Of a stretch of DNA of 37,052 bases, positions 2,998 through 36,845 are shown piece after piece (positions within the stretch are counted from its first letter, which is position 1; the number at the start of each line of letters is the position of its first letter). Below the pieces are notes generated by a model. It ran no database searches, was not told the origin of the DNA, and was given only the letters and a program-made list of their open reading frames with translations. The stretch lies in contig JBBIRR010000039.1 of the NCBI GenBank assembly GCA_037441705.1, positions 1 through 37,052 on the forward strand, written 5' to 3'. Made by a program: the position numbers and the translations under genes. Origin of the DNA: Ignavibacteriales bacterium. GTDB taxonomy: Bacteria > Bacteroidota > Ignavibacteria > UBA10030 > UBA6906.

Positions 2998-3711
2998 ATG
3001 ATGAAACTTTCGCTTGACACGTTCCTTACCGGCACGGGCGACATCGAGGCAACGCAGTATCGTGTGCTGGAAGGCTTGAAAACGTACTACGGAGAGTTCT
3101 CTCACAACAGACTTTATCCCTCGCTCTCGGAGTTGGTGGAGTTGCATCGGGCGTTGGTGGAGATCATCACCAGCATGAGCGACATCCAGGGACATCTTCC
3201 CCACGAACTCAAGGAGGTGGATCTGAGCGAAGGAAAGCTCGTGTATCAGACGAGCGGATTGACCGACGACGATCTCGCTCGGGCCGCAGAGCTGATTGTC
3301 TGGGCCCTCCCAAAAATCCAGCAGGCAATTGACGAAGGCGTTAACATCTACAATTTTGTAGATGAGCACATCCAGATCGAACACGTGGGGATTCTTCCGA
3401 TGTACCGCGAAGAAGGATACTGGTTTGTCCCGGAGCATCGGCTCGCGCTGCTGCATCTGCTGCGGTATGAACTGTCTCTCTTCACCTCCGCCAACGAGCG
3501 TTATCGTCTCCTGAAGACGGTGAACATCGGTGAGATCGAGCAGAAGTACATCCATCGCTCGCCCGAGGCGATCAAACTCCAGCTCATCGAGCAATATCGT
3601 GATCTGCCCAATCCGGCCACCTATGTGTGCGAGACGGATCTGGACTTCCCCTACAACGAAACGATCCTTCCCATTGCCAAGCGCAAGCTGATGGCTCAGG
3701 TTTACTGTTGA
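2998..3711 (+). CDS. Conserved hypothetical protein (resembles an FCB-group family of unknown function)
   Basis: 237-aa ORF with protein-like composition (LYPSLSEL, VGILPMYREEGY, ETILPIAKRKL), preceded by a promoter-like sequence. No catalytic motif recognised. Confidence 0.75.
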   Translation: MMKLSLDTFLTGTGDIEATQYRVLEGLKTYYGEFSHNRLYPSLSELVELHRALVEIITSMSDIQGHLPHELKEVDLSEGKLVYQTSGLTDDDLARAAELIVWALPKIQQAIDEGVNIYNFVDEHIQIEHVGILPMYREEGYWFVPEHRLALLHLLRYELSLFTSANERYRLLKTVNIGEIEQKYIHRSPEAIKLQLIEQYRDLPNPATYVCETDLDFPYNETILPIAKRKLMAQVYC

Positions 3712-3721
3712 GTAGGTTGCC

Positions 3722-5386
3722 ATGCCCTCCCCGAAATGCCCGTTGTGCAAGCAATACGTTGAGCGTCTGATCCATATTTTTACCGGCGACGCCGAGCAAG
3801 CCGTCATCGCAAGGATTCGGGCGCGGTACCCTTCATGGTCTATCTATCAGGGACTGTGCGAACGGTGCTTCTATCTCAATGAATTTGAAACGGCGGACGA
3901 TCACTTCCTTCCCGATCCGGGGTTGGGGGACGGAACAACGGCCCTGCGCAGCTCGCTGTTTCGTGCTCGGGTGAAGAACGAATTCGCTCTGCTGCCCATT
4001 CCGCTTCGTCTCAACGCCGATCCGCGCTTTCGCGGGAAAGGAATAACCCTCGCCTTCATCGACTCCGGGTTTTACCCCCATCCGGATCTTGTCAGACCAA
4101 CCAATCGCATCAAGGAGATCGTGGATGTAACGGACCAGAAACTGCCGCGGCGATACTTCCGCACAGCGCACGCAGAAAGCTGGCACGGAACCATGACCGC
4201 CGTGACCGCTGCAGGCAACGGAACGCTTTCGGACGGATTGTACCGAGGCATCGCCTCGGAAGCAGATGTTGTGTTGCTGAAGGCGATGAATACGGACAAA
4301 CGCGGCATCTCGCGGCAGGACATTGTCCGGGCGATGCGCTGGGCGATTGACCATGCGGAGCAGTACAACATTCGCATCATCAGCGTCTCGGTCTATGACG
4401 ATGAACCCGGCTCGGCGGCGGACAATCCGGTGAACGCGGCGGTGGAGGAAGCGGTGAACAAAGGCATCATTGTCGTTGCGGCTGCAGGAAACACGCCGAA
4501 CAGCACGCTCTTTCCGCCGGCGAACGCGCCCGCGGCAATCACCGTCGGCGGGGTTGACGACCGGAATGATATGCGGAAGGAGCTGCGGCGGATGTTTCGC
4601 TCAACGTATGGAAGGACGACCGATGGCCCGTCCAAACCCGACCTGATTGCTCCCGCGATCTGGGTGGCGGGACCGATTCTTCCGCACACCGATCAATTCC
4701 GCGAGGCGCCGGTGTTGTTCAGACTTCTCACCGCCACGCCGAAGATGGCCGAACGCATTCTGCAACGCCATCGTGATGCGCTGCCGAACTTCCCGAGACG
4801 ACTTCGGAACGGTGCATACAAGGAGTGGGCGCGCAAACGGATCGAGGAGATGAAGTACGTCGCACCGTACTACAAGCACGTCGATGGGACGTCGTTCGCC
4901 GCGCCGATTGTGAGCGCGGTAATCGCTCAAATGCTCGAAGCCTATCCCGCCCTCACGCCGGCCGACGTCAAGCGCCTGCTCATGGAAACCGCTGAGCCGT
5001 TGAGGCATATCGGACAGGAACAGCAGGGACACGGCGTGTTGAACCCGCGTGCGGCTGTGCTTGCCGCCATCACGAAACAGTACAACGACCTGGGGGCCGG
5101 CGTTCACACCGTTGATGGACGAGTGGTGTTCGTGTACCACAATCGCGTCCCTCGTTCGGTTGCCGTTGCCGGCAGCTTCAACAACTGGAATGCCCAGCAA
5201 CTTTCCCTCCACGAATCGCACGACGGCTGGTGGAGCGCCTGGATGCCGAAGCCACAGCCCGGCACACATCAATACAAATATGTCATTGATGGAAGCGTCT
5301 GGCTGGAGGATCCCGCGAACAAAGAGAAGACTCCGGATGGTTTTGGTGGATGGAATAGCCTGATCGTTGTGTCAGGAAAGGACTAG
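3722..5386 (+). CDS. S8 (subtilisin/AprX-like) serine protease with N-terminal CxxC..CxxC module and C-terminal CBM48/AMPK-beta-like glycogen-binding domain
   Basis: Catalytic triad FIDSG / WHGTMTA / DGTSFAAP and oxyanion-hole AAAGN. C-terminal VAVAGSFNNW...GWW...PGTHQYKYVIDG.W..DPAN....DGFGG.NS is the CBM48-type pattern. No signal peptide. Confidence 0.9.
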   Translation: MPSPKCPLCKQYVERLIHIFTGDAEQAVIARIRARYPSWSIYQGLCERCFYLNEFETADDHFLPDPGLGDGTTALRSSLFRARVKNEFALLPIPLRLNADPRFRGKGITLAFIDSGFYPHPDLVRPTNRIKEIVDVTDQKLPRRYFRTAHAESWHGTMTAVTAAGNGTLSDGLYRGIASEADVVLLKAMNTDKRGISRQDIVRAMRWAIDHAEQYNIRIISVSVYDDEPGSAADNPVNAAVEEAVNKGIIVVAAAGNTPNSTLFPPANAPAAITVGGVDDRNDMRKELRRMFRSTYGRTTDGPSKPDLIAPAIWVAGPILPHTDQFREAPVLFRLLTATPKMAERILQRHRDALPNFPRRLRNGAYKEWARKRIEEMKYVAPYYKHVDGTSFAAPIVSAVIAQMLEAYPALTPADVKRLLMETAEPLRHIGQEQQGHGVLNPRAAVLAAITKQYNDLGAGVHTVDGRVVFVYHNRVPRSVAVAGSFNNWNAQQLSLHESHDGWWSAWMPKPQPGTHQYKYVIDGSVWLEDPANKEKTPDGFGGWNSLIVVSGKD

Positions 5387-5427
5387 GCCTTTCACACGAG
5401 TGTGGTTTTCTTTCATTACCACCAAGC

Positions 5428-5456
5428 TTGCGCAACTACGACATTTGAGCTATATT
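5428..5456 (+). promoter_or_regulatory. Sigma70-like promoter of the three-gene cassette
   Basis: TTGCGC (5428-5433), a 17-nt spacer, then TATATT (5451-5456), about 58 nt upstream of the ATG at 5515. Confidence 0.5.
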
Positions 5457-5514
5457 GGCTATGCGGATGCGTATCTTTCCCTTCTTCCTATTTGCTGAAG
5501 ATTCAGCGTAACCA

Positions 5515-6255
5515 ATGGCCAGCTCAAGGCACTTACGAAACGCCCCGATAGTTGAAGCCATGATTGTCATCAAGGTCAAGCTCCCCAGCGGATTTGATAT
5601 CATGAAGTTCAAGGAGGCAAGCAACATCGTTCGCAGCAGCTACCCAGAACAGTTTAACATCCTGGAAGTAAGCGGTCAGTTTCAAGCCGGCGAGGGTTCA
5701 AGCGTAGCACAGACGGCGAGCAACGTTATTGGTTTTGGCTTCAAGTCGGACGACAAGCGGAATGTTGTCCAATTTCGAAGGGAAGGGTTCACATACAATC
5801 GGTTGAAGCCCTATACTTCGTGGACCGAAGTTCGCACCGAGGCCCTACGAGTGTGGGACATCTACAAAAAAATTGCCTCACCGGGCTTGGTAACACGAAT
5901 CGCAGCCCGATACATTAATCACCTAAATGTTCCTTTAGCCGAAAACCTATTAGACTACATCTATTCACCAACATTACCGAACGAAACACAAGCAGAGCTA
6001 AACGGTTTTCTGACCCGTTTTGCTGCCAGCGACAGAGTCTCGAGTTTGCAGGCCAACATCACGCAAGCACTGGAGCGTGCGCTTGACCAGAAATCGCTAA
6101 ATGTGATCCTGGATATCGAGGTTTACAAACAAGGACAGTATGACCCTGAGACTGATGCGGAAAAGATTGTTACAGATTTTGAACGGATCAGGGAGTTCAA
6201 GAATCGAATTTTCTTTGCCTATATCACGGAAAAAACCGCGAGGCTTTTTGAATGA
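5515..6255 (+). CDS. TIGR04255-family protein
   Basis: N-terminal HLRNAPIVEA, FTYNRLKPYTSW, RIAARYIN, ILDIE and C-terminal KNRIFF..IT match my recollection of this sporadically distributed family. Lower GC than the flanks. Confidence 0.75.
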   Translation: MASSRHLRNAPIVEAMIVIKVKLPSGFDIMKFKEASNIVRSSYPEQFNILEVSGQFQAGEGSSVAQTASNVIGFGFKSDDKRNVVQFRREGFTYNRLKPYTSWTEVRTEALRVWDIYKKIASPGLVTRIAARYINHLNVPLAENLLDYIYSPTLPNETQAELNGFLTRFAASDRVSSLQANITQALERALDQKSLNVILDIEVYKQGQYDPETDAEKIVTDFERIREFKNRIFFAYITEKTARLFE

Positions 6256-6746
6256 GCACGTTGGCAATTCATCATGACCCTTTCGTGTTGCGGGACGATG
6301 CGGGCTTAAGTGAAGATGCAAGACAGCTGAAGGATCGGCTCGAATCGATCAGCAACGACATGAGAAAGACCGTATCCTTTGGAGAACCACTGAGGAACGT
6401 GTATCTCGCCATACAGGAGATATTAGAAGAGGGTTCAACCGATAACTGGGATTCCTATGGTGCAAAGGCGGTCACTCAGCAGACGTATGATCAAGCGCTG
6501 AGATTCTTGAGAGCCCTTTCGCCGGCGGTCCCGATGCCGGAAATTTCCTTGGAACCGGATGGCGAATTCGCTTTCGATTGGTTTAGAGCGCCAGGCTGGG
6601 TCTTTTCCGTAAGCATCGGAGGGACGGGAGATCTGACGTACGCAGGTGTCTTTGGCAAAAACAAAACTCATGGCACTGAGGTTTTTCAAGATGAAATCCC
6701 TAAGGTCATTATGGACAACCTTTCGCGGCTTTATGCGGAAAGGTAA
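6252..6746 (+). CDS. Hypothetical protein with DNWDSYGA / P.I..EPDGE..FDW motifs (TIGR04255 partner)
   Basis: 164-aa ORF whose ATG overlaps the upstream stop (ATGA). Confidence 0.75.
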   Translation: MSTLAIHHDPFVLRDDAGLSEDARQLKDRLESISNDMRKTVSFGEPLRNVYLAIQEILEEGSTDNWDSYGAKAVTQQTYDQALRFLRALSPAVPMPEISLEPDGEFAFDWFRAPGWVFSVSIGGTGDLTYAGVFGKNKTHGTEVFQDEIPKVIMDNLSRLYAER

Positions 6747-7161
6747 ACCTACCCACTTCTCCTCATTCGACCCACTTGATCCTTTTTCCAGGTTCATTTG
6801 CAGTCGCAGTCACTTTGCTTCCGAAAAGAACATCGTAAAGCCTGCTGCCTTCCTTCCCAACGAAACGAACATGCAAGTTTCCGTCTTTCACACCAAACTT
6901 CTTTCAAGCAGCGACATATGGGAAATCGGTAGACGCTTCGTCGCAAGGCCGAGCAACAGGACCGTCTACGCTCGTGCTGATTTCAAGGCCAATGACGTCA
7001 GCACCGTACATCTCACGCTACGACTGGATAACGATCCACCTCGCCATGCTAATATCATCGGATGGCCAGCCGAGAAATCGGAACGGAAGCTCCTTGCAAT
7101 TCAATTGGCCGGTATGGCTTCACTCTCGACACCGGCAGCTCCCATCATCCCAAAAGCATGA
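6733..7161 (+). CDS. Hypothetical protein, possible ADP-ribosyltransferase-fold toxin
   Basis: Likely start is the ATG at 6733 (MRKGKP), overlapping the previous gene by 14 bp; the track start at 6646 overlaps it by 100 bp. Motif order FSRF / KPAAFLP / QVSVF / PPRHANI. The coding call is fairly firm; the function is inference. Confidence 0.65.
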   Translation: MRKGKPTHFSSFDPLDPFSRFICSRSHFASEKNIVKPAAFLPNETNMQVSVFHTKLLSSSDIWEIGRRFVARPSNRTVYARADFKANDVSTVHLTLRLDNDPPRHANIIGWPAEKSERKLLAIQLAGMASLSTPAAPIIPKA

Positions 7162-7185
7162 GATTGTCGCTCTATTCCGGAACGG

Positions 7186-7812
7186 ATGAAGCAAGCCCCG
7201 AAAGCAATCGTCGCATTCGCCGTTATGCTCCTGCTCGTCGCGATTGCGGTCTATCTCCTTCTCGTCCGAACGCCGGCCGACGTTGCGCGCAATCTTGCCG
7301 ACGGCATTGCCCGCACGTTCAACTTTACACCGCAAGTCAAGATTGAAGAAACCGTCGTCATCGAGCAGAACACGCCGATTGCCGAGCTTGCAACGGTTGC
7401 GCGCGATCTGATGGTCGAATACTCGTGGTCGCACCAGTGGCTCGGCAGTACCAAGACCATCAGACTGCGAGGCACGTATACTGCAAAGGCGGGCTTCGAT
7501 TTGAAGCAGCCATTCAGCCTCACGATTCGCACGTCGCCGCTGCGCGTGCAAGCGCGGATGCCCGCGCCCAAACTGCTCTCGCTGCAGATGAATTCCTACT
7601 CCATCCTCGAGGACGAAAGCGGCTGGTGGAACAGAATCTCCGACGCCGACCGTGAACAGGCGGTTCAAGAGTTGCAACGCGTGGCGTTCGAGAAAGCAAC
7701 ACGCTCCGGCATGCTCGCCGAGGCCGCGTCGACGGTCGAGCAGCGAATACGAGAGCTTGCCGAGCACAACGGCGCACTCATTGAGTTTCTCTCACGGTGG
7801 CAGGAACGATGA
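7186..7812 (+). CDS. DUF4230-family membrane-anchored protein
   Basis: N-terminal TM helix, ELATV, TAKAGFDL, MPAPKLLS and a C-terminal 'GMLAEA' helix. Confidence 0.72.
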   Translation: MKQAPKAIVAFAVMLLLVAIAVYLLLVRTPADVARNLADGIARTFNFTPQVKIEETVVIEQNTPIAELATVARDLMVEYSWSHQWLGSTKTIRLRGTYTAKAGFDLKQPFSLTIRTSPLRVQARMPAPKLLSLQMNSYSILEDESGWWNRISDADREQAVQELQRVAFEKATRSGMLAEAASTVEQRIRELAEHNGALIEFLSRWQER

Positions 7813-8714
7813 GCAGTCCACTCTCTCAGCTACTTGATCGGCGATCTCTTCTTCTCCTTGATGGAGCGATGGGAACGGAGTTGGAGCGCCGTGGAGTTGA
7901 CATCGGTCTGCCGTTCTGGTCGGCAAATGCACTGGTGCATCGGCCCGACGTGGTGTTGCAGATCCACAAGGACTACATCGAAGCCGGCGCAGATATCATC
8001 ACCACCAATACTTTCAGAACAAATCGTCGCGTGTTCAAGAACGCTGGCACTCCCGATCGTTCTCGTGAACTTACCGCCACGGCAGTAGAGCTTGCGCAGC
8101 GAGCGCGCGACGCGTACCCACACCGCACAATTCTCATCGCGGGCAGCGTCGCCCCCGTGGAGGATTGCTACCGGCCCGATCGTGTTCCATCGGAAGGCGA
8201 GTTGCAGGATGAGCATGGCGAACTCTGCGAGAGATTGGCCAGGCTCGGCGTGGATTGTATTCTGATTGAAACCATGACGACGATACGCGAAGCATACGCA
8301 GCATGCGCCGCCGCCAAAGCGACGTCGAAGGAAGTGATTGTGAGTTTCACGTGCACGCGGGACGGAGCACTTCTGGGCGGTGAACCTCTCGCCGATGCTG
8401 TTGCGGCCCTCGCAGAGCTGCAGCCCACAATGTTCTCGCTGAACTGCATCTCGCCGCGGCACCTTACGCCGCTCGTTCACAGATTAGGCTCCCTGCTTGC
8501 GCAAAGCGCTCCCGGAACCCCGTTCGGCGTGTACGCCAACGTCGGTAAGCCCGACGTGCGCGAAGGCGCGATGACGCAGGACGTTGATGAGGAAGAGTAC
8601 GCAGTGTTCGCTGCAGAGTGGAAGCAGCTCGGCGCGTCGATGGTCGGGGGATGCTGCGGCACAACGCCAGAGTACATCCGACGTCTCGCCGAAACACTTG
8701 CCGTTGCCCCATAA
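7809..8714 (+). CDS. Homocysteine S-methyltransferase family protein (stand-alone HMT domain)
   Basis: LLDGAMGTEL, H.DYIEAGADIITTNTF, IETM, LNC and zinc-binding GGCCGTTPEYI. The ATG at 7809 overlaps the upstream stop. Confidence 0.9.
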   Translation: MSSPLSQLLDRRSLLLLDGAMGTELERRGVDIGLPFWSANALVHRPDVVLQIHKDYIEAGADIITTNTFRTNRRVFKNAGTPDRSRELTATAVELAQRARDAYPHRTILIAGSVAPVEDCYRPDRVPSEGELQDEHGELCERLARLGVDCILIETMTTIREAYAACAAAKATSKEVIVSFTCTRDGALLGGEPLADAVAALAELQPTMFSLNCISPRHLTPLVHRLGSLLAQSAPGTPFGVYANVGKPDVREGAMTQDVDEEEYAVFAAEWKQLGASMVGGCCGTTPEYIRRLAETLAVAP

Positions 8715-8821
8715 GCCCTTCGTATCGTATATTCTGCTACACGCGTCGCCGACGTCAAGGAAACGTGAGGGCTGACGCGCAAATCAAGACGAAACGGAAA
8801 CAATCATTGTCTCAGGTAGCT

Positions 8822-9409
8822 ATGGCCAGTACACTTTCTACCATGTTGCCTCTCGGCACCGCGGCACCGGCCTTCAGTTTGCCGGATGTCCTGAGCGGCA
8901 AAACAATTTCGCTCGACACATTCAAGGACAAGAAAGCATTGCTGGTAATGTTCATCTGCCGACATTGTCCTTACGTAAAGCACATCCAGCATGAGATCGC
9001 GCGCCTCGGCAAGGACTATGCAGACAAGAACGTCGGGATTGTGGCCATCACATCGAACGATCCGCAGCAGTACCCGGAGGACGCACCCGAACGTTCTGCC
9101 GAGATGGCGAAGGAACTGGGGTTCACTTTTCCTTTTTGCTACGATGCGACGCAGGACGTCGCCAAAGCGTTCCGCGCTGCATGCACACCGGAGTTTTACA
9201 TTTTCGACGATGCGCGGCGGCTTGTCTATCGTGGGCAATTCGATGACAGCAGGCCGACGAATGCCATTCCGGTAACGGGGAAGGATGTGCGCGCTGCCCT
9301 CGATGCCGTCCTTGCCGGCACACCGGTCGAGCAGCGCCAGATTCCGAGCATAGGCTGCAACATCAAATGGAAGCCGGGGAACGAGCCGGCATATCTCAGC
9401 ATGCGGTAA
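8822..9409 (+). CDS. Thioredoxin-family (AhpC/TSA-like) protein
   Basis: [43 protein letters not shown] and SIGCNIKW. True start is probably the ATG at 8822. Confidence 0.9.
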
Positions 9410-9494
9410 GATTGCACACAGGTCTGAACCGTTCACCTTCGGTGCGTTTGAAATTCAATTCATTCATTTCCCTCAACTGTCGCGATCACACATC

Positions 9495-10358
9495 ATGAAG
9501 CACAACCGCCTTATTGTTCCGCCCGGCACAACGATCTCTCTTGCGGAGTACGACCCCGGCTACACCGGTGAGTTCACATCGAAAAGCGAAGCGCAGGAGA
9601 AGCTCGAACGAGATATCGCGCGCCTTGCCGAATTGCAGGAAGTGTTGTACGCCCACAATCGTTACGCGCTGTTGCTGATTTTTCAGGCGATGGATGCGGC
9701 CGGCAAGGACAGCGTCATCAAACACGTCATGAGCGGCGTCAATCCGCAGGGGTGTCAGGTGTTCAGCTTCAAAGCGCCGTCGCAGGAAGAGCTGGATCAC
9801 GACTTCATGTGGCGGACGACCAAGGCGCTGCCCGAACGGGGGCGCATCGGTATTTTCAATCGCTCTTACTACGAGGAAGTGTTGATTGTCCGTGTCCATC
9901 CGGAGATTCTCAACTCGCAAAACATCCCCGATGAAGAGAAGAATGAGAACATCTGGCAGCACCGGTTTGACGACATCAACAACTTTGAGCGCTATCTCAC
10001 ACGCAACGGCACGGTGATTTTGAAATTCTTCCTTCACGTTTCAAAGAAGGAACAACAAGAACGTTTCCTCGAGCGCATCGAACGGCCGCAAAAGAATTGG
10101 AAGTTTTCCTTCGCCGATGTGAAGGAACGAGAGCGCTGGGACGAGTACATGCACGCATACCAGGAGATGCTGAACCACACGAGCACGTCGTGGGCCCCGT
10201 GGTACGTTATCCCGGCAGACCGCAAGTGGTTCACGCGGGCTGCCGTCGCCGACATCATTGTGGCGAAACTCGAGTCGCTCGACTTGCGATTCCCCGAGGT
10301 GAGCGAGCAGCACAGGCAGGAACTGCGATTGGCGAAAGAGATGCTGGAGCGACAGTAA
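9495..10358 (+). CDS. ppk2: Polyphosphate kinase 2 family (single-domain, class III-like)
   Basis: Walker [33 protein letters not shown] and [13 protein letters not shown]. Confidence 0.93.
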
Positions 10359-10387
10359 CCGAAGCTCATCCACCAGATGCTCTGCGC

Positions 10388-11857
10388 TCAGTATCGTCTT
10401 CTTCTTGTCGTGCCACCCATCAAGCTGCCGAGGACCCCGCGCACAAGCTGGCGACCGATCTGGCTTCCGACGGCGCGCAGCGTGCTTTTCGCAACGGCTT
10501 CGAACATCGTGTCCGAGCGGCGCGCCGGGGCGCGAGCCGCCGTCTTCTCCTGTTGTTCGAGCGCCTCAAGTTTTGTTTCCTCCGCAAAGCGCTTCGTCAG
10601 CACTTCGTACGCCGATTCTCGATCGACAAGCTTTTCGTAGTAGCCGGCAACAAGAGAGCTTGCAATGAGCGCACGCCTCTGCTCGGGAGTAATCGGGCCG
10701 ATCTGGCTGTGCGGCGGAAGGATGAACGCGCGTTCAACAATACCCGGCGTGCCTTTGGCGTCGAGAAACGACACGAGCGCCTCGCCAACACCGAGTTCTG
10801 CAATCACTTTCTCCGCATCAAAGCGGGGATTCTGACGGAAGGTTTCGGCGGCGGCTTTCACGGCTTTCTGATCGCGGGGCGTGTAGGCGCGCAGTGCATG
10901 CTGCACGCGGTTGCCGAGCTGGCCCAGCACGATGTCCGGAATATCCAGCGGGTTCTGACTGATGAAATACACGCCGACACCCTTCGACCGAACGAGCCGC
11001 ACCACCTGCTCGATTTTCTGAAGCAGGTTCGTCGGCGCATCGGCAAACAGCAGATGAGCTTCGTCGAAGAAGAACACCAGCTTCGGCTTTTCAAGGTCGC
11101 CCACTTCAGGAAGCTGTTCGAACAATTCCGACAGCAGCCACAGCAGAAACGTCGAGTAGATCATCGGCGCGTGCAGAAGCTTCTCCGCAGCGAGGATATT
11201 GACCACGCCGCGCCCGTTGCTGTCGGTTTGCATCAGATCATCGAGATTCAATGCCGGCTCGCCGAAGAACTTTTCCCCTCCCTGTTGCTCGAGCTGCAGC
11301 AAGCCGCGCTGGATCGCTCCGATGCTTGCCGCAGAAACGTTGCCGTACTGCGTCCGGAACGCGGCGGCATTGTCGCCGACAAACTGCAGCATGGCGCGCA
11401 AGTCTTTGAGATCGAGCAGCAACAGCCCGTTATCGTCGGCAATCTTGAAGACCATGCTCAACACACCGGCCTGCGTGTCGTTCAAGTTTAACAGGCGGCT
11501 GAACAAGAGCGGCCCCATCTCCGACACAGTAGCGCGCACGGGATGCCCCAACTCGCCGAACACATCCCACACGGTCGTCGGACACCCCTCGAACGGGTAG
11601 TCTCGCAAGCCTAATTGTTTGATGCGATCGAGAACCTTCGGGTTGTTGCCGCCCGGCAGGCTTATGCCTGCAAGGTCGCCTTTCACGTCCGCCATGAACA
11701 CGGGGACGCCGATAGCGCTGAATCGTTCGGCAAGAACCTGCAGCGTGACGGTCTTGCCTGTGCCGGTCGCGCCCGCAATCAGTCCGTGACGGTTTGCCAT
11801 GTGGGGAAGGAGGTACAACTCTTTCTCACCTTTTGCGACAAGGAGTGCTTCTGCCAT
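10388..11857 (-). CDS. DUF853 / YjgR HerA-like ATPase
   Basis: [38 protein letters not shown] and [11 protein letters not shown]. Confidence 0.92.
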
Positions 11858-35048: not shown

Positions 35049-35188
35049 TAATTCCGAGAAGTCTGCATGGCTATGCGCGCACGGCGCTGCGGGTCCAACA
35101 TCCTGCGCTTTCTTGACTTCGTTTCGCGATTTGGTTTACTTGCCACCAAAGAAGGAGGGATTCCCGACCGATAGATTGATTAAGGGAG

Positions 35189-36613
35189 ATGGCAATGAGC
35201 GACTTCGAGTTTACCAATTTCGACGATGAATACGACCCAGCCGACGATGAGCGTCAGGAAGATGAGCTGAAGAAACTGAAGGACATGCTGAAGGATGATT
35301 CCGCGAAGCTGTCGAACATAGAAGCGCTGGAAGAGATCGTCAACTATTATTGGGAGAATGAAAAATACGAAGACGCTCTCCATTTCATCAATCAACTGCT
35401 CACCTACATCCCGTACAGCGCCGAGATGTGGCAGCGCAAGGGACAAATCCTGACGAATCTCTTCCGCTATGAAGAAGCAATCGACGCGTACAACAAGGCG
35501 CTCTCGCTCAACCCGGTCGATCCGGAACTTCTCGTCAACAAAGGCATCACGCTGGACGACCTGAGCAAACCCGAAGAGGCGCTTGCGTGTTTCGAGAAGG
35601 CCCTCGAGATCGACCCTTCCAACGAAGACGCACTCTTTAATAAGGCGATCACGCTGGAGAAGACGGGCCGATATCAGGAAGCCGTGCAAATCTTCAAGTT
35701 CATCACCGAAACCAACCCCACCCACAAGGATGCGTGGTACGAGCTGGGGTTCTGCTACGATTATCTCGATCAGCCTGCCGACTCGCTGCGCGCATACGAC
35801 GAGCATATCAACCTCGATCCGTACAATTACAACGCGTGGTACAACCGCGGCATCGTGCTCAATCGCATGTACCAGTACCACCGCGCGATCGAAAGCTACG
35901 ACACCGCCCTTGCCATCCACGAGAACTTCCCGGCGGCGTGGTACAACAAAGGCAACGCGTACGCCAACATGGGAAAGCTCGAAGAGGCAATCCACTGCTA
36001 TCGCGAGACGCTGAAGTTCGAGGAGAAGGATGTGCCGGCATGGCACAATCTCGGCAACGCCTATGAAGAGTTGGGCGAATACGAGCTTGCCATCCGCGCG
36101 TTTTCCCAGGCGCTCAAATACGATCCGAAACACTACGAGTCCTATTTCGGGAGAGGAAGTTGCTACGATTCGCTCGGCCATTTCCGTCGTGCCCTCAGCG
36201 ACTACAACAAGGCGCTTTCGCTGTGCAACGACTACGCGGATATCTGGTACGCCAAAGCCGACCTGCTGTATAACATGGGCAGAATCGAGGACTCGGTGCT
36301 CGCGTACAAGATGGTGACCAAGCTCGAACCGACCAACTGCGATGCATGGCTCGACTACGGCGAGACACTGCTCGAGTTGGGATACGTGAAGCAGGCACTC
36401 AAGGCATTCGACAAAGCCCGAGAAGCCAATCCCGTTTCCTCCGAGCCGCATTACTACCGCGCCAAAGCGCTCATTCTGCTGCGCCGCACCACCGAAGCCA
36501 TCGATTCCCTCAAGCAGTGCTTCCAGCTCAACCCCGCCATGCAGCAGATGTTCGAGGAGGAGTTTCCGGACGCGAAAACGCTGAAGGCATTCAAGAAGTT
36601 GTTGGAGAAATAG
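35189..36613 (+). CDS. Tetratricopeptide repeat protein
   Basis: About a dozen 34-aa repeats (AWYNKG..Y...G..EEA..Y..AL...P) after an acidic N-terminus; AAGGGAG RBS. Confidence 0.93.
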   Translation: MAMSDFEFTNFDDEYDPADDERQEDELKKLKDMLKDDSAKLSNIEALEEIVNYYWENEKYEDALHFINQLLTYIPYSAEMWQRKGQILTNLFRYEEAIDAYNKALSLNPVDPELLVNKGITLDDLSKPEEALACFEKALEIDPSNEDALFNKAITLEKTGRYQEAVQIFKFITETNPTHKDAWYELGFCYDYLDQPADSLRAYDEHINLDPYNYNAWYNRGIVLNRMYQYHRAIESYDTALAIHENFPAAWYNKGNAYANMGKLEEAIHCYRETLKFEEKDVPAWHNLGNAYEELGEYELAIRAFSQALKYDPKHYESYFGRGSCYDSLGHFRRALSDYNKALSLCNDYADIWYAKADLLYNMGRIEDSVLAYKMVTKLEPTNCDAWLDYGETLLELGYVKQALKAFDKAREANPVSSEPHYYRAKALILLRRTTEAIDSLKQCFQLNPAMQQMFEEEFPDAKTLKAFKKLLEK

Positions 36614-36845
36614 CACCCGTCGGATCGCTCGGGGTTCGACCCTGCCGCCCGGTAGGCGGAAGCGCCGCCGCGCTTGACAGTCCCCTCACACCGCCACACA
36701 CTACCACTGCAAGACTTGAACGGCTCTCACAATCGCCTGATGCCGAAGCGATAGGATGGGCGAGCCGTTGTGGTTTTTCTGATAACGAGAAGTTTCGTTA
36801 TATTCATGCCATGTTGGTGATGACCTTTTCCTTGAGGAGATGCCG

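Follow-up and report, generated by a model that had tools for sequence, protein, structure and literature searches.

The stretch of DNA considered here, contig JBBIRR010000039.1 of an Ignavibacteriales bacterium (GenBank assembly GCA_037441705.1), was analysed over its full length of 37,052 nucleotides, hereafter termed 'the window', and contains on its forward strand a compact cassette of three tightly coupled open reading frames (ORFs), designated g1, g2 and g3. An initial annotation, made from the letters of the sequence, had described this cassette and had proposed that it represents a tripartite toxin-antitoxin-chaperone or anti-phage system; the analyses reported below confirmed what had been observed at the locus, and supported the accompanying interpretation in part. 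The reading that emerges from them, and that is held tentatively, at slightly less than an even chance, is that it constitutes a tripartite module which is mobile and self-contained and belongs to a toxin-antitoxin-like or abortive-infection type. The features of the locus are these:

5428..5456, + strand: promoter-like element TTGCGC-17-TATATT upstream of g1, read from the sequence, with a putative function
5515..6255, + strand: g1, 246 amino acids; TIGR04255 family; predicted tandem TBP-like alpha/beta protein
6252..6746, + strand: g2, 164 amino acids; motifs NWDSYGA (65-71) and PDGE (102-105) in the C-terminal domain; predicted partner of g3
6691..7161, + strand: g3, 156 amino acids (142 from an alternative ATG at 6733); small alpha/beta protein; putative effector

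The three ORFs were found where they had been placed (5515-6255, 6252-6746 and a third ending at 7161), and the coupling of the first two through an ATGA at 6252-6255, in which the start of g2 overlaps the stop of g1, can be read directly from the DNA, with a GAGG at 6240-6243 preceding the g2 start. The overlap of 14 base pairs previously described between g2 and g3 exists if g3 begins at the ATG at 6733 (the TAA stop of g2 occupies 6744-6746); however, the ATG at 6691, which yields a g3 of 156 residues and a g2/g3 overlap of 56 base pairs, is the more likely start, because its methionine is kept in the three closest g3 homologues (where the methionine of 6733 is replaced by isoleucine or threonine) and because a GAGG at 6678-6681 precedes it. 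Translation from that start would leave 56 base pairs (6691-6746) coding in two frames, for the C-terminus of g2 and the N-terminus of g3. The resulting N-terminal extension of g3 is basic and rich in aromatic residues, is similar in many homologues, and could either be genuine or arise as a side effect of the conservation of the C-terminus of g2 in the other frame. Residue numbers given for g3 below refer to the form of 142 residues.

Upstream of g1, the hexamers TTGCGC (5428-5433) and TATATT (5451-5456) and the 17-nucleotide spacer between them are present on direct reading, and together they form the best-conserved part of the intergenic sequence in a comparison with one close relative, an uncultured Chlorobi-labelled genome (L001), in which the element reads TTGCGA ... 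TATATT. A scan for consensus promoters, which reported a single site in the region where 1.7 were expected, did not list the element, because its first hexamer matches the consensus at only three of six bases. The earlier claim that the cassette carries its own promoter stands as regards the hexamers and their spacing, and the promoter itself is best regarded as putative.

The recurrence of the trio in other organisms was established by a scan of contigs from one genome per species, seeded with an alignment of g2, which returned at least 149 relatives (a lower bound, because the scan used a single peptide pattern); the locus counts given here rest on the best 80 of those 149. Homologues of g1 and g3 lie on either side of g2, all three in one orientation and in the order g1-g2-g3, and 57 of the 80 loci carry all three genes intact in that order and orientation, a recurrence that exceeds chance and that bears out the expectation of a conserved trio. 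Intact copies of g1 are present at 65 loci, the gene being split at three, absent from eight and cut by a contig end at four, and g3 is intact at 66, split or truncated at seven, absent from four and cut by a contig end at three; contig ends interrupt seven of the 80 loci in all. The decay of g2 is not comparable with that of its neighbours, because the loci were chosen through g2. No conserved fourth gene accompanies the trio, since the 592 flanking ORFs fall into 521 clusters, and the clusters that are shared come from close relatives only.

The three genes also appear to have diverged together. Across 46 genomes, the pairwise identities of g1, g2 and g3 are correlated (Mantel r of 0.75, 0.60 and 0.65, each with p 0.001). 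The mean column identities in the alignments of the three genes are 40, 35 and 32%, and the ratio of nonsynonymous to synonymous substitution rates (dN/dS) is approximately 0.07-0.33 for all three in those pairs with measurable dS; each of the genes is under purifying selection. In six related loci, comprising L049 (6990-7199), L050, L060 and three further loci from Acidobacteriaceae, a conserved ORF of about 70 amino acids without a Pfam family lies directly upstream of g1, and may represent either a regulator or a fourth gene peculiar to that lineage.

A physical association between two of the three products is predicted by co-folding, for which each protein was supplied with its own alignment, the median of three runs was taken, and controls were included. 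The g2-g3 pair scored 0.91 against 0.01 for the best control, supporting in silico the suggestion that these two proteins form a binding pair; the mark of 0.91 is attained by 116 of the 157 solved complexes and by 2 of the 215 mismatched pairs, although these benchmarks are only approximate because our own alignments were used. At least 99% of contacts agreed between runs, and the partner displayed a predicted local distance difference test score (pLDDT) of at least 90. The interface comprises residues 65-71 (that is, NWDSYGA), 97-103, 129-133 and 138-142 of g2, and residues 21-27, 36-45, 49-50, 70-78 and 114-127 of g3, so that the most conserved motifs of g2 would constitute its g3-binding surface. 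In the model g2 touches residues of g3 that lie beside R20, S50 and K115, and R20, H105, W111 and P112 of g3 are not among the named contacts. Binding of g3 by g2 is thereby supported as a prediction, and the modelled geometry fits the occlusion of an active site as well as it fits an obligate heterodimer.

The putative effector itself belongs to an extensive protein family. With a profile built from an alignment of 59 g3 sequences, 3557 representative clusters were matched at a threshold of E<=1e-3, and 2603 when the threshold was E<=1e-10. The copy in the window displayed no usable Pfam or NCBIfam family, and within PADLOC only PDC-S02 was matched at E<=1 (E 0.043); Pfam searches with the 59 members gave scattered single matches only, a profile search of the PDB gave a best E of 0.036 that was judged to be chance, and the ESM Atlas contained no model of either g3 or g1, the nearest clusters being nameless or labelled TIGR04255. 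An AlphaFold2 model of g3 (pLDDT 93.5, predicted template modelling score 0.86) describes an alpha/beta protein with six strands and three main helices. This model has no match at E 1e-3 among PDB or viral structures (the best Foldseek match to the latter being an uncharacterised Hyperionvirus protein at E 0.016), and the only coherent set among the 50 PDB matches listed consists of eight Tpt1/KptA RNA 2'-phosphotransferases, from several archaeal and bacterial sources. Three residues, R20, S50 and H105, are invariant in g3 and are located on strands 1, 2 and 5 of the model. In ADP-ribosyltransferases the signature residues lie on the first, second and fifth strands, and the catalytic signatures correspond to H-Y-E or R-S-E sets. 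As a lead only, the model may indicate that g3 adopts an NAD-using fold of the Tpt1/KptA (ADP-ribosyltransferase) type.

The first gene, by comparison, has a name. As had been recognised, g1 belongs to NCBIfam family TIGR04255, of which it is a full-length member: its residues 7-246 align with positions 2-252 of the 252-position profile at E 2.5e-32, with 112.7 bits against a cut-off of 30, and the ESM Atlas clusters nearest to it are all named TIGR04255. The family was not mentioned in the literature searched; g1 has no Pfam family at E<=1 and no PADLOC match, a profile search of the PDB gave a best E of 0.05 (again judged to be chance), and one g1 member produced an isolated and weak match to phrog_5464 in PHROGs, at 6.9e-5. 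The AlphaFold2 model of g1 (pLDDT 94.7) contains a tandem repeat of a strand-helix-four-strand-helix unit. Foldseek comparison of that model with the PDB gave nine matches at E<=1e-3 (to AdoMetDC/prozyme, RepDE and TBP), the best of them at E 7.5e-5 to 9e-4 with template modelling (TM) scores of 0.26-0.30; McsB just misses E 1e-3 and reaches a TM score of up to 0.39, and all of these matches have TM scores between 0.26 and 0.39. Both halves of g1, as modelled, are TBP-like, and the protein as a whole is without a close solved relative. Its near-invariant polar residues are E14, D18, Q86, Y100, R128, R132, N135, D200, D202, K229 and N230. A SecB-like g1 was considered and rejected, with no SecB match in Pfam and none among the 50 Foldseek matches to the PDB that were listed, in agreement with the earlier remark that any chaperone here is not recognisably SecB.

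The product of g2 showed no usable Pfam or NCBIfam family in the window and no PADLOC match at E<=1, and Pfam searches with the 73 members of its alignment again gave scattered single matches only. A profile search of the PDB gave a best E of 0.25, judged to be chance; a word-indexed protein search recovered nine relatives of g2 and four of g3, which understates both families; longer, fused homologues of g2 were looked for and none was recovered, which counts as weak evidence; and in PHROGs one g2 member gave an isolated, weak match (E 0.005) to phrog_30544 (372 positions), in its C-terminal part.

Within the g2 family, the N-terminal segment of approximately 50 residues co-occurs with g1. An N-terminus of this kind (scored as a profile match beginning at or before position 15) is present at 62 of the 65 loci with an intact g1 and at two of the eight without g1, the latter representing at least four lineages and not being independent of one another. 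In a pair of Desulfobacterales loci (L004 and L008), the synonymous divergence dS is 0.02 for g2 and 0 for g3, as compared with 0.31 for the adjacent g1; this contrast points to recent recombination within the cassette, and it argues that the g2-g3 pair and g1 may be exchanged separately. A further arrangement was found on plasmid pCRI9333.03 of Crinalium epipsammum (L081, 5001-6831), where a close TIGR04255 gene precedes overlapping genes for proteins of 182 and 171 amino acids that are without family and unrelated to the C-terminal domain of g2 or to g3, so that, on sequence comparison, the three-gene layout is shared and the partners differ. A resemblance between the N-terminus of the second Crinalium protein and that of g2 (4.9 bits, E 8e-4 among three sequences) was too weak to be used. 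The co-occurrence of tail and g1, the dS contrast and the difference in the Crinalium partners together suggest that g1 may dock on the N-terminal tail of its partner and may act as a swappable third component.

Although the copies in the window lack a named family, the g2-g3 core is already partly named, in that it bears a remote family likeness to the PADLOC candidate system PDC-M32A/B. Fifty of the 73 g2 members match the PDC-M32A model PDLC04575 (best E 3.8e-7), and 19 and seven of the 73 match two further PDC-M32A models; eight of the 59 g3 members match PDC-M32B (PDLC04579) at a best E of 1.5e-4, over nearly the whole of its 123-position profile, and none of 65 g1 members matches any M32 model. 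The relation is described as remote because the scores of the members are weak.

The distribution and composition of the cassette support the conclusion that it is a self-contained unit that moves horizontally between lineages. The 80 loci come from 20 named phyla, with eight loci lacking a phylum name. On a FastTree phylogeny built from the three proteins joined end to end (46 rows), 22 changes of phylum label are required, against a minimum of 16 and a mean of 30.7 after shuffling, and cross-phylum sister pairs such as Calditrichota with Thermodesulfobacteriota are well supported; inheritance is also partly vertical, because some groups, including Verrucomicrobiota, form single clades on that tree. 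Of the 69 loci at which flanks of 3 kb or more were available, 67 have a cassette whose guanine-plus-cytosine (GC) content lies below that of its flanks (mean difference -0.07, Wilcoxon p 1e-12). The same holds in the window, where the cassette had been noted to be richer in AT than its surroundings: its GC content is 0.493 as compared with 0.575 for the remainder, or 0.48-0.50 over positions 5501-7000 as compared with 0.54-0.62 on either side. With unrelated flanks, low GC content and phyla mixed on the tree, the suggestion of a patchily distributed, horizontally moving unit has held up.

In the window, the cassette is bounded upstream by an S8 peptidase with a CBM48 domain and downstream by a DUF4230 protein and a homocysteine S-methyltransferase, names that were taken from the Pfam matches of the counterparts in L001 (67-74% identical); the earlier statement that no integrase or insertion sequence (IS) lies nearby is correct for these immediate neighbours, which were the scope of that check. 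L001 displays the same neighbours on both sides of its cassette, and positions 2998-8714 of the window are collinear with its positions 4755-10433 over at least seven genes including the cassette, at 61-74% protein identity, an agreement suggesting that the organism of the window is related to the L001 lineage. Across the wider set of loci, a survey against Pfam of 246 ORFs of at least 80 amino acids located within two genes of a cassette returned mostly housekeeping functions (gltX, recO, fumarase, rpoD, ruvA, pheS, gyrB, yidC/mnmE and pnp). The neighbourhoods look more like the scatter seen with toxin-antitoxin modules than like a defence island.

Seven related genomes labelled Latescibacterota or Gemmatimonadota (L066, L067, L070, L072, L073, L076 and L078) display the cassette in various states of decay, in most of them at a position between an FG-GAP/ASPIC protein and a SurA-like peptidyl-prolyl isomerase. 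The full trio is retained in L070 and L078, g1 is gone from the other five, and g3 is gone from L072 and L073. A fragment of an IS1595-type transposase lies upstream of the cassette in L066, and in L076 a HicB-like ORF (read by eye from the sequence) lies upstream and an MmeI-type restriction-modification gene downstream.

Elsewhere in the window, scans for tRNA genes and Rfam families found nothing. At positions 35180-36616, two ORFs of more than 470 amino acids lie on opposing strands and overlap one another, and the GC content over the initial 500 bases of this region is low, at 0.488; the forward-strand ORF encodes a protein of TPR repeats, which matches an engineered TPR protein from the PDB at E 2e-145, and the reverse-strand ORF, without a match, is probably a shadow ORF.

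Two additional contexts bear on the possible function of the cassette. On plasmid pTB1 of Thermus brockianus, a TIGR04255 gene adjoins a CopG-VapC (VapBC) pair, a DNA methylase and cas6. A distant full trio is present at positions 194-2061 of a record deposited as the P2-like Ralstonia phage YO139_2 (UNVERIFIED_ORG; L082), with profile E-values of 7e-64 for g1, 3.7e-8 for g2 and 6e-4 for g3, each obtained against eight sequences only. That trio is located no more than about 2 kb from the end of the deposited sequence, which is unannotated, and a PDB search with an ORF neighbouring it found nothing; because the ORFs further in resemble what we take to be a type VI secretion PAAR/effector cluster, it is perhaps part of a host flank rather than phage cargo.

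These observations can be assembled into a working mechanism. In the tripartite module favoured here, g3 would be a small enzyme-like effector, possibly NAD-using and with an ADP-ribosyltransferase/Tpt1-like fold in which R20, S50 and H105 would make up the pocket. The C-terminal domain of g2 would clamp g3 by means of NWDSYGA and PDGE and hold it inactive, the N-terminal tail of g2 would connect the resulting pair to g1, and g1, as a TIGR04255 protein with a tandem TBP-like fold, would serve as a stabiliser or a sensor. Were g1 or g2 to be lost or titrated, as might happen when a phage infects, g3 would be freed and the cell would be arrested. The mobile part of this reading follows from the spread over 20 phyla, the mixing on the tree and the reduced GC content; its defence or toxin-antitoxin flavour is drawn from the members that match PDC-M32A/B, the neighbours on pTB1 and the trio in L082.

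A number of results weigh against that reading. The Tpt1/KptA matches, which are the only coherent structural lead for the ADP-ribosyltransferase type of effector that had been brought into the comparison at the outset, are not significant (E 0.24-0.69, probability 0.23-0.72, TM scores 0.34-0.43), and no invariant or near-invariant acidic residue was found among the 59 g3 sequences. Pfam searches with g2 and its members found no DNA-binding domain of a kind that would suggest autoregulation. Loss or breakage affects g1 and g3 alike, at 11 loci each, and decay is therefore not specific to a toxin. The g2 motifs and several conserved g3 residues lie within the predicted interface, which would be equally expected of a non-toxic, obligate heterodimer. 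The window's own g2 and g3 fall short of the PDC-M32 models, so that the proposed check with PADLOC gave matches for members of the family and none for the copies at hand; the member matches are themselves weak, and PDC-M32 is itself a candidate only. In L001 the cassette is slightly less conserved than its flanks (61-67% as compared with 67-74% identity), and its synteny is stable; between these two genomes it is apparently inherited vertically, which agrees locally with one of the refuting conditions named at the outset, although this was found for L001 alone and not across the other 79 loci. The anticipated enrichment near defence islands was not apparent: a gene of the IS/integrase, restriction-modification, toxin-antitoxin or helicase/nuclease type lies within two genes of the cassette at 13 of the 80 loci (L011, L012, which is weak, L024, L025, L032, L033, L035, L060, L063, L064, L066, L074 and L076), a raw count without a background rate; at the remaining loci the neighbours are housekeeping genes or lack a family, and most neighbours overall are housekeeping genes. 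Finally, tblastn searches of 72,556 plasmid and 50,697 phage records, using the window copies and members from L070 or L051 as queries, found neither g2 nor g3.

Some of the same evidence would be accommodated by a selfish addiction (toxin-antitoxin) module that plays no role in phage defence, the loss of which would kill or slow the host and in which g1 would tune the stability of g2. The cassette sits singly among housekeeping genes such as gltX, recO, rpoD, ruvA, pheS and gyrB in most loci, its compact and coupled genes, low GC content and sporadic spread are those expected of such an element, and the predicted g2-g3 complex could be that of a toxin with its antitoxin; yet addiction requires fewer than three components, no copies of g2 and g3 were found in the plasmid records searched, and the remote homology is to a candidate that was chosen for its embedding in defence loci, and this explanation is considered unlikely. 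No more probable is a non-toxic heteromeric enzyme or regulatory complex, with an accessory metabolic or repair function that has been spread by gene transfer, in which g2 and g3 would be obligate subunits (handling, for example, NAD or phosphate, with RNA or a small molecule as the target) and g1 would bind a ligand or substrate. Such a complex would explain why the most conserved residues of g2 are, in the model, those of the interface, why the three genes are about equally conserved and decay equally often, and why synteny with L001 is stable, and the invariant R, S, H and K of g3 in the absence of an acidic residue would fit Tpt1-like phosphate chemistry. Against it, the 592 flanking ORFs in their 521 clusters display no linkage to metabolic or repair genes, the systematically low GC content and cross-phylum mixing are typical of conflict or selfish genes, and some members match PDC-M32.

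It is also conceivable, although very unlikely, that the catalytic effector is g1 itself, with its large, curved antiparallel sheet and conserved charged cluster acting in the manner of AdoMetDC or a guanidino kinase, and that g2-g3 is its regulator or specificity module. The many near-invariant polar residues of g1, its resemblance in Foldseek to AdoMetDC (E 7.5e-5) and, with a TM score of up to 0.39, to McsB, a protein arginine kinase, and the presence of other downstream partners on the Crinalium plasmid would be in keeping with this idea. However, the TM scores of 0.26-0.39 are low and the matched folds share no function, g2 and g3 persist without g1 at five loci (L037, L065, L066, L067 and L076), and PDC-M32 is matched by none of the 65 g1 members.

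A wider form of the tripartite module reading would hold that TIGR04255 constitutes a novel class of adaptor or sensor, distinct from SecB, that docks on the short N-terminal tails of its partners and is combined with differing partner-effector pairs (g2 and g3 here, the unrelated proteins of 182 and 171 amino acids in Crinalium), and that g3 represents a new and minimal enzyme fold, NAD-using and built around an R-S-H centre, the release of which arrests the cell. This proposal is rather unlikely as it stands; if it were true, a broad and unrecognised family of tripartite immune or toxin-antitoxin systems would exist. Three uncharacterised families gain a common and testable context through TIGR04255 and its fixed partner pair, and one of them, that of g3, has the several thousand representative clusters noted above and yet no Pfam or NCBIfam model. 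Should the cassette prove to be a defence or toxin-antitoxin system, it would add a three-component design that is not based on SecB, and possibly a new effector chemistry, from mostly uncultured phyla that are missed by screens based on Escherichia coli.

Of the systems already described, the candidate PDC-M32 is the closest to the cassette. The PDC systems, according to a preprint on them, were proposed on account of their location inside loci of the BREX, DISARM or type I restriction-modification kind, and its authors describe them as 145 candidates that are as yet untested (bioRxiv 10.1101/2024.01.29.577857); PADLOC matches to PDC-M32A/B in a Sinorhizobium prophage are also noted in a further study (PMC12429752). 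In PDC-M32, as here, a g2-like gene adjoins and precedes a g3-like gene on the same strand. PDC-M32 differs in consisting of two genes, with an A protein of approximately 375 residues in place of the g2 of 164 residues and a separate TIGR04255 gene. Because g2 covers only positions ~236-375 of the 375-position M32A profile and g1 is unmatched, TIGR04255 would stand in the three-gene form for the N-terminal two thirds (~230 positions) of M32A, and the cassette is, by profile comparison, most likely a TIGR04255-bearing variant of candidate PDC-M32.

The toxin-antitoxin-chaperone (TAC) systems, of the Mycobacterium tuberculosis HigBA-SecB type or of the CmdTAC type, offer a second comparison. The toxin of CmdTAC is described as an ADP-ribosyltransferase (PMC11618068), and another report ascribes the chaperone dependency of TAC systems to a C-terminal extension (PMC6377645). 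The cassette shares with these systems its compact three-gene operon, the presence in one component (here g2) of an extension that accompanies the third gene, and an antitoxin-like protein that is predicted to bind an effector-like one. It differs in that the extension of g2 is N-terminal, the C-terminus of g2 being part of the domain that contacts g3 in the model, and in that the third protein is a TIGR04255 member with a predicted tandem TBP-like fold rather than SecB. None of the three proteins displays sequence or profile likeness to known toxin or antitoxin families in Pfam, NCBIfam or PADLOC.

With the Tpt1/KptA enzymes, g3 shares the placement of its invariant residues on strands 1, 2 and 5, as in ADP-ribosyltransferases generally. 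It differs from Tpt1 in being a single domain of approximately 125 residues without that protein's second lobe, and from ADP-ribosyltransferases in carrying R, S and H in place of the H-Y-E, R-S-E or Tpt1 sets; sequence and profile searches with g3 found no match to Tpt1/KptA or to any other ADP-ribosyltransferase family. As for TIGR04255 itself, that family gains from g1 and its surrounding locus both a predicted fold and a fixed genomic partner pair.

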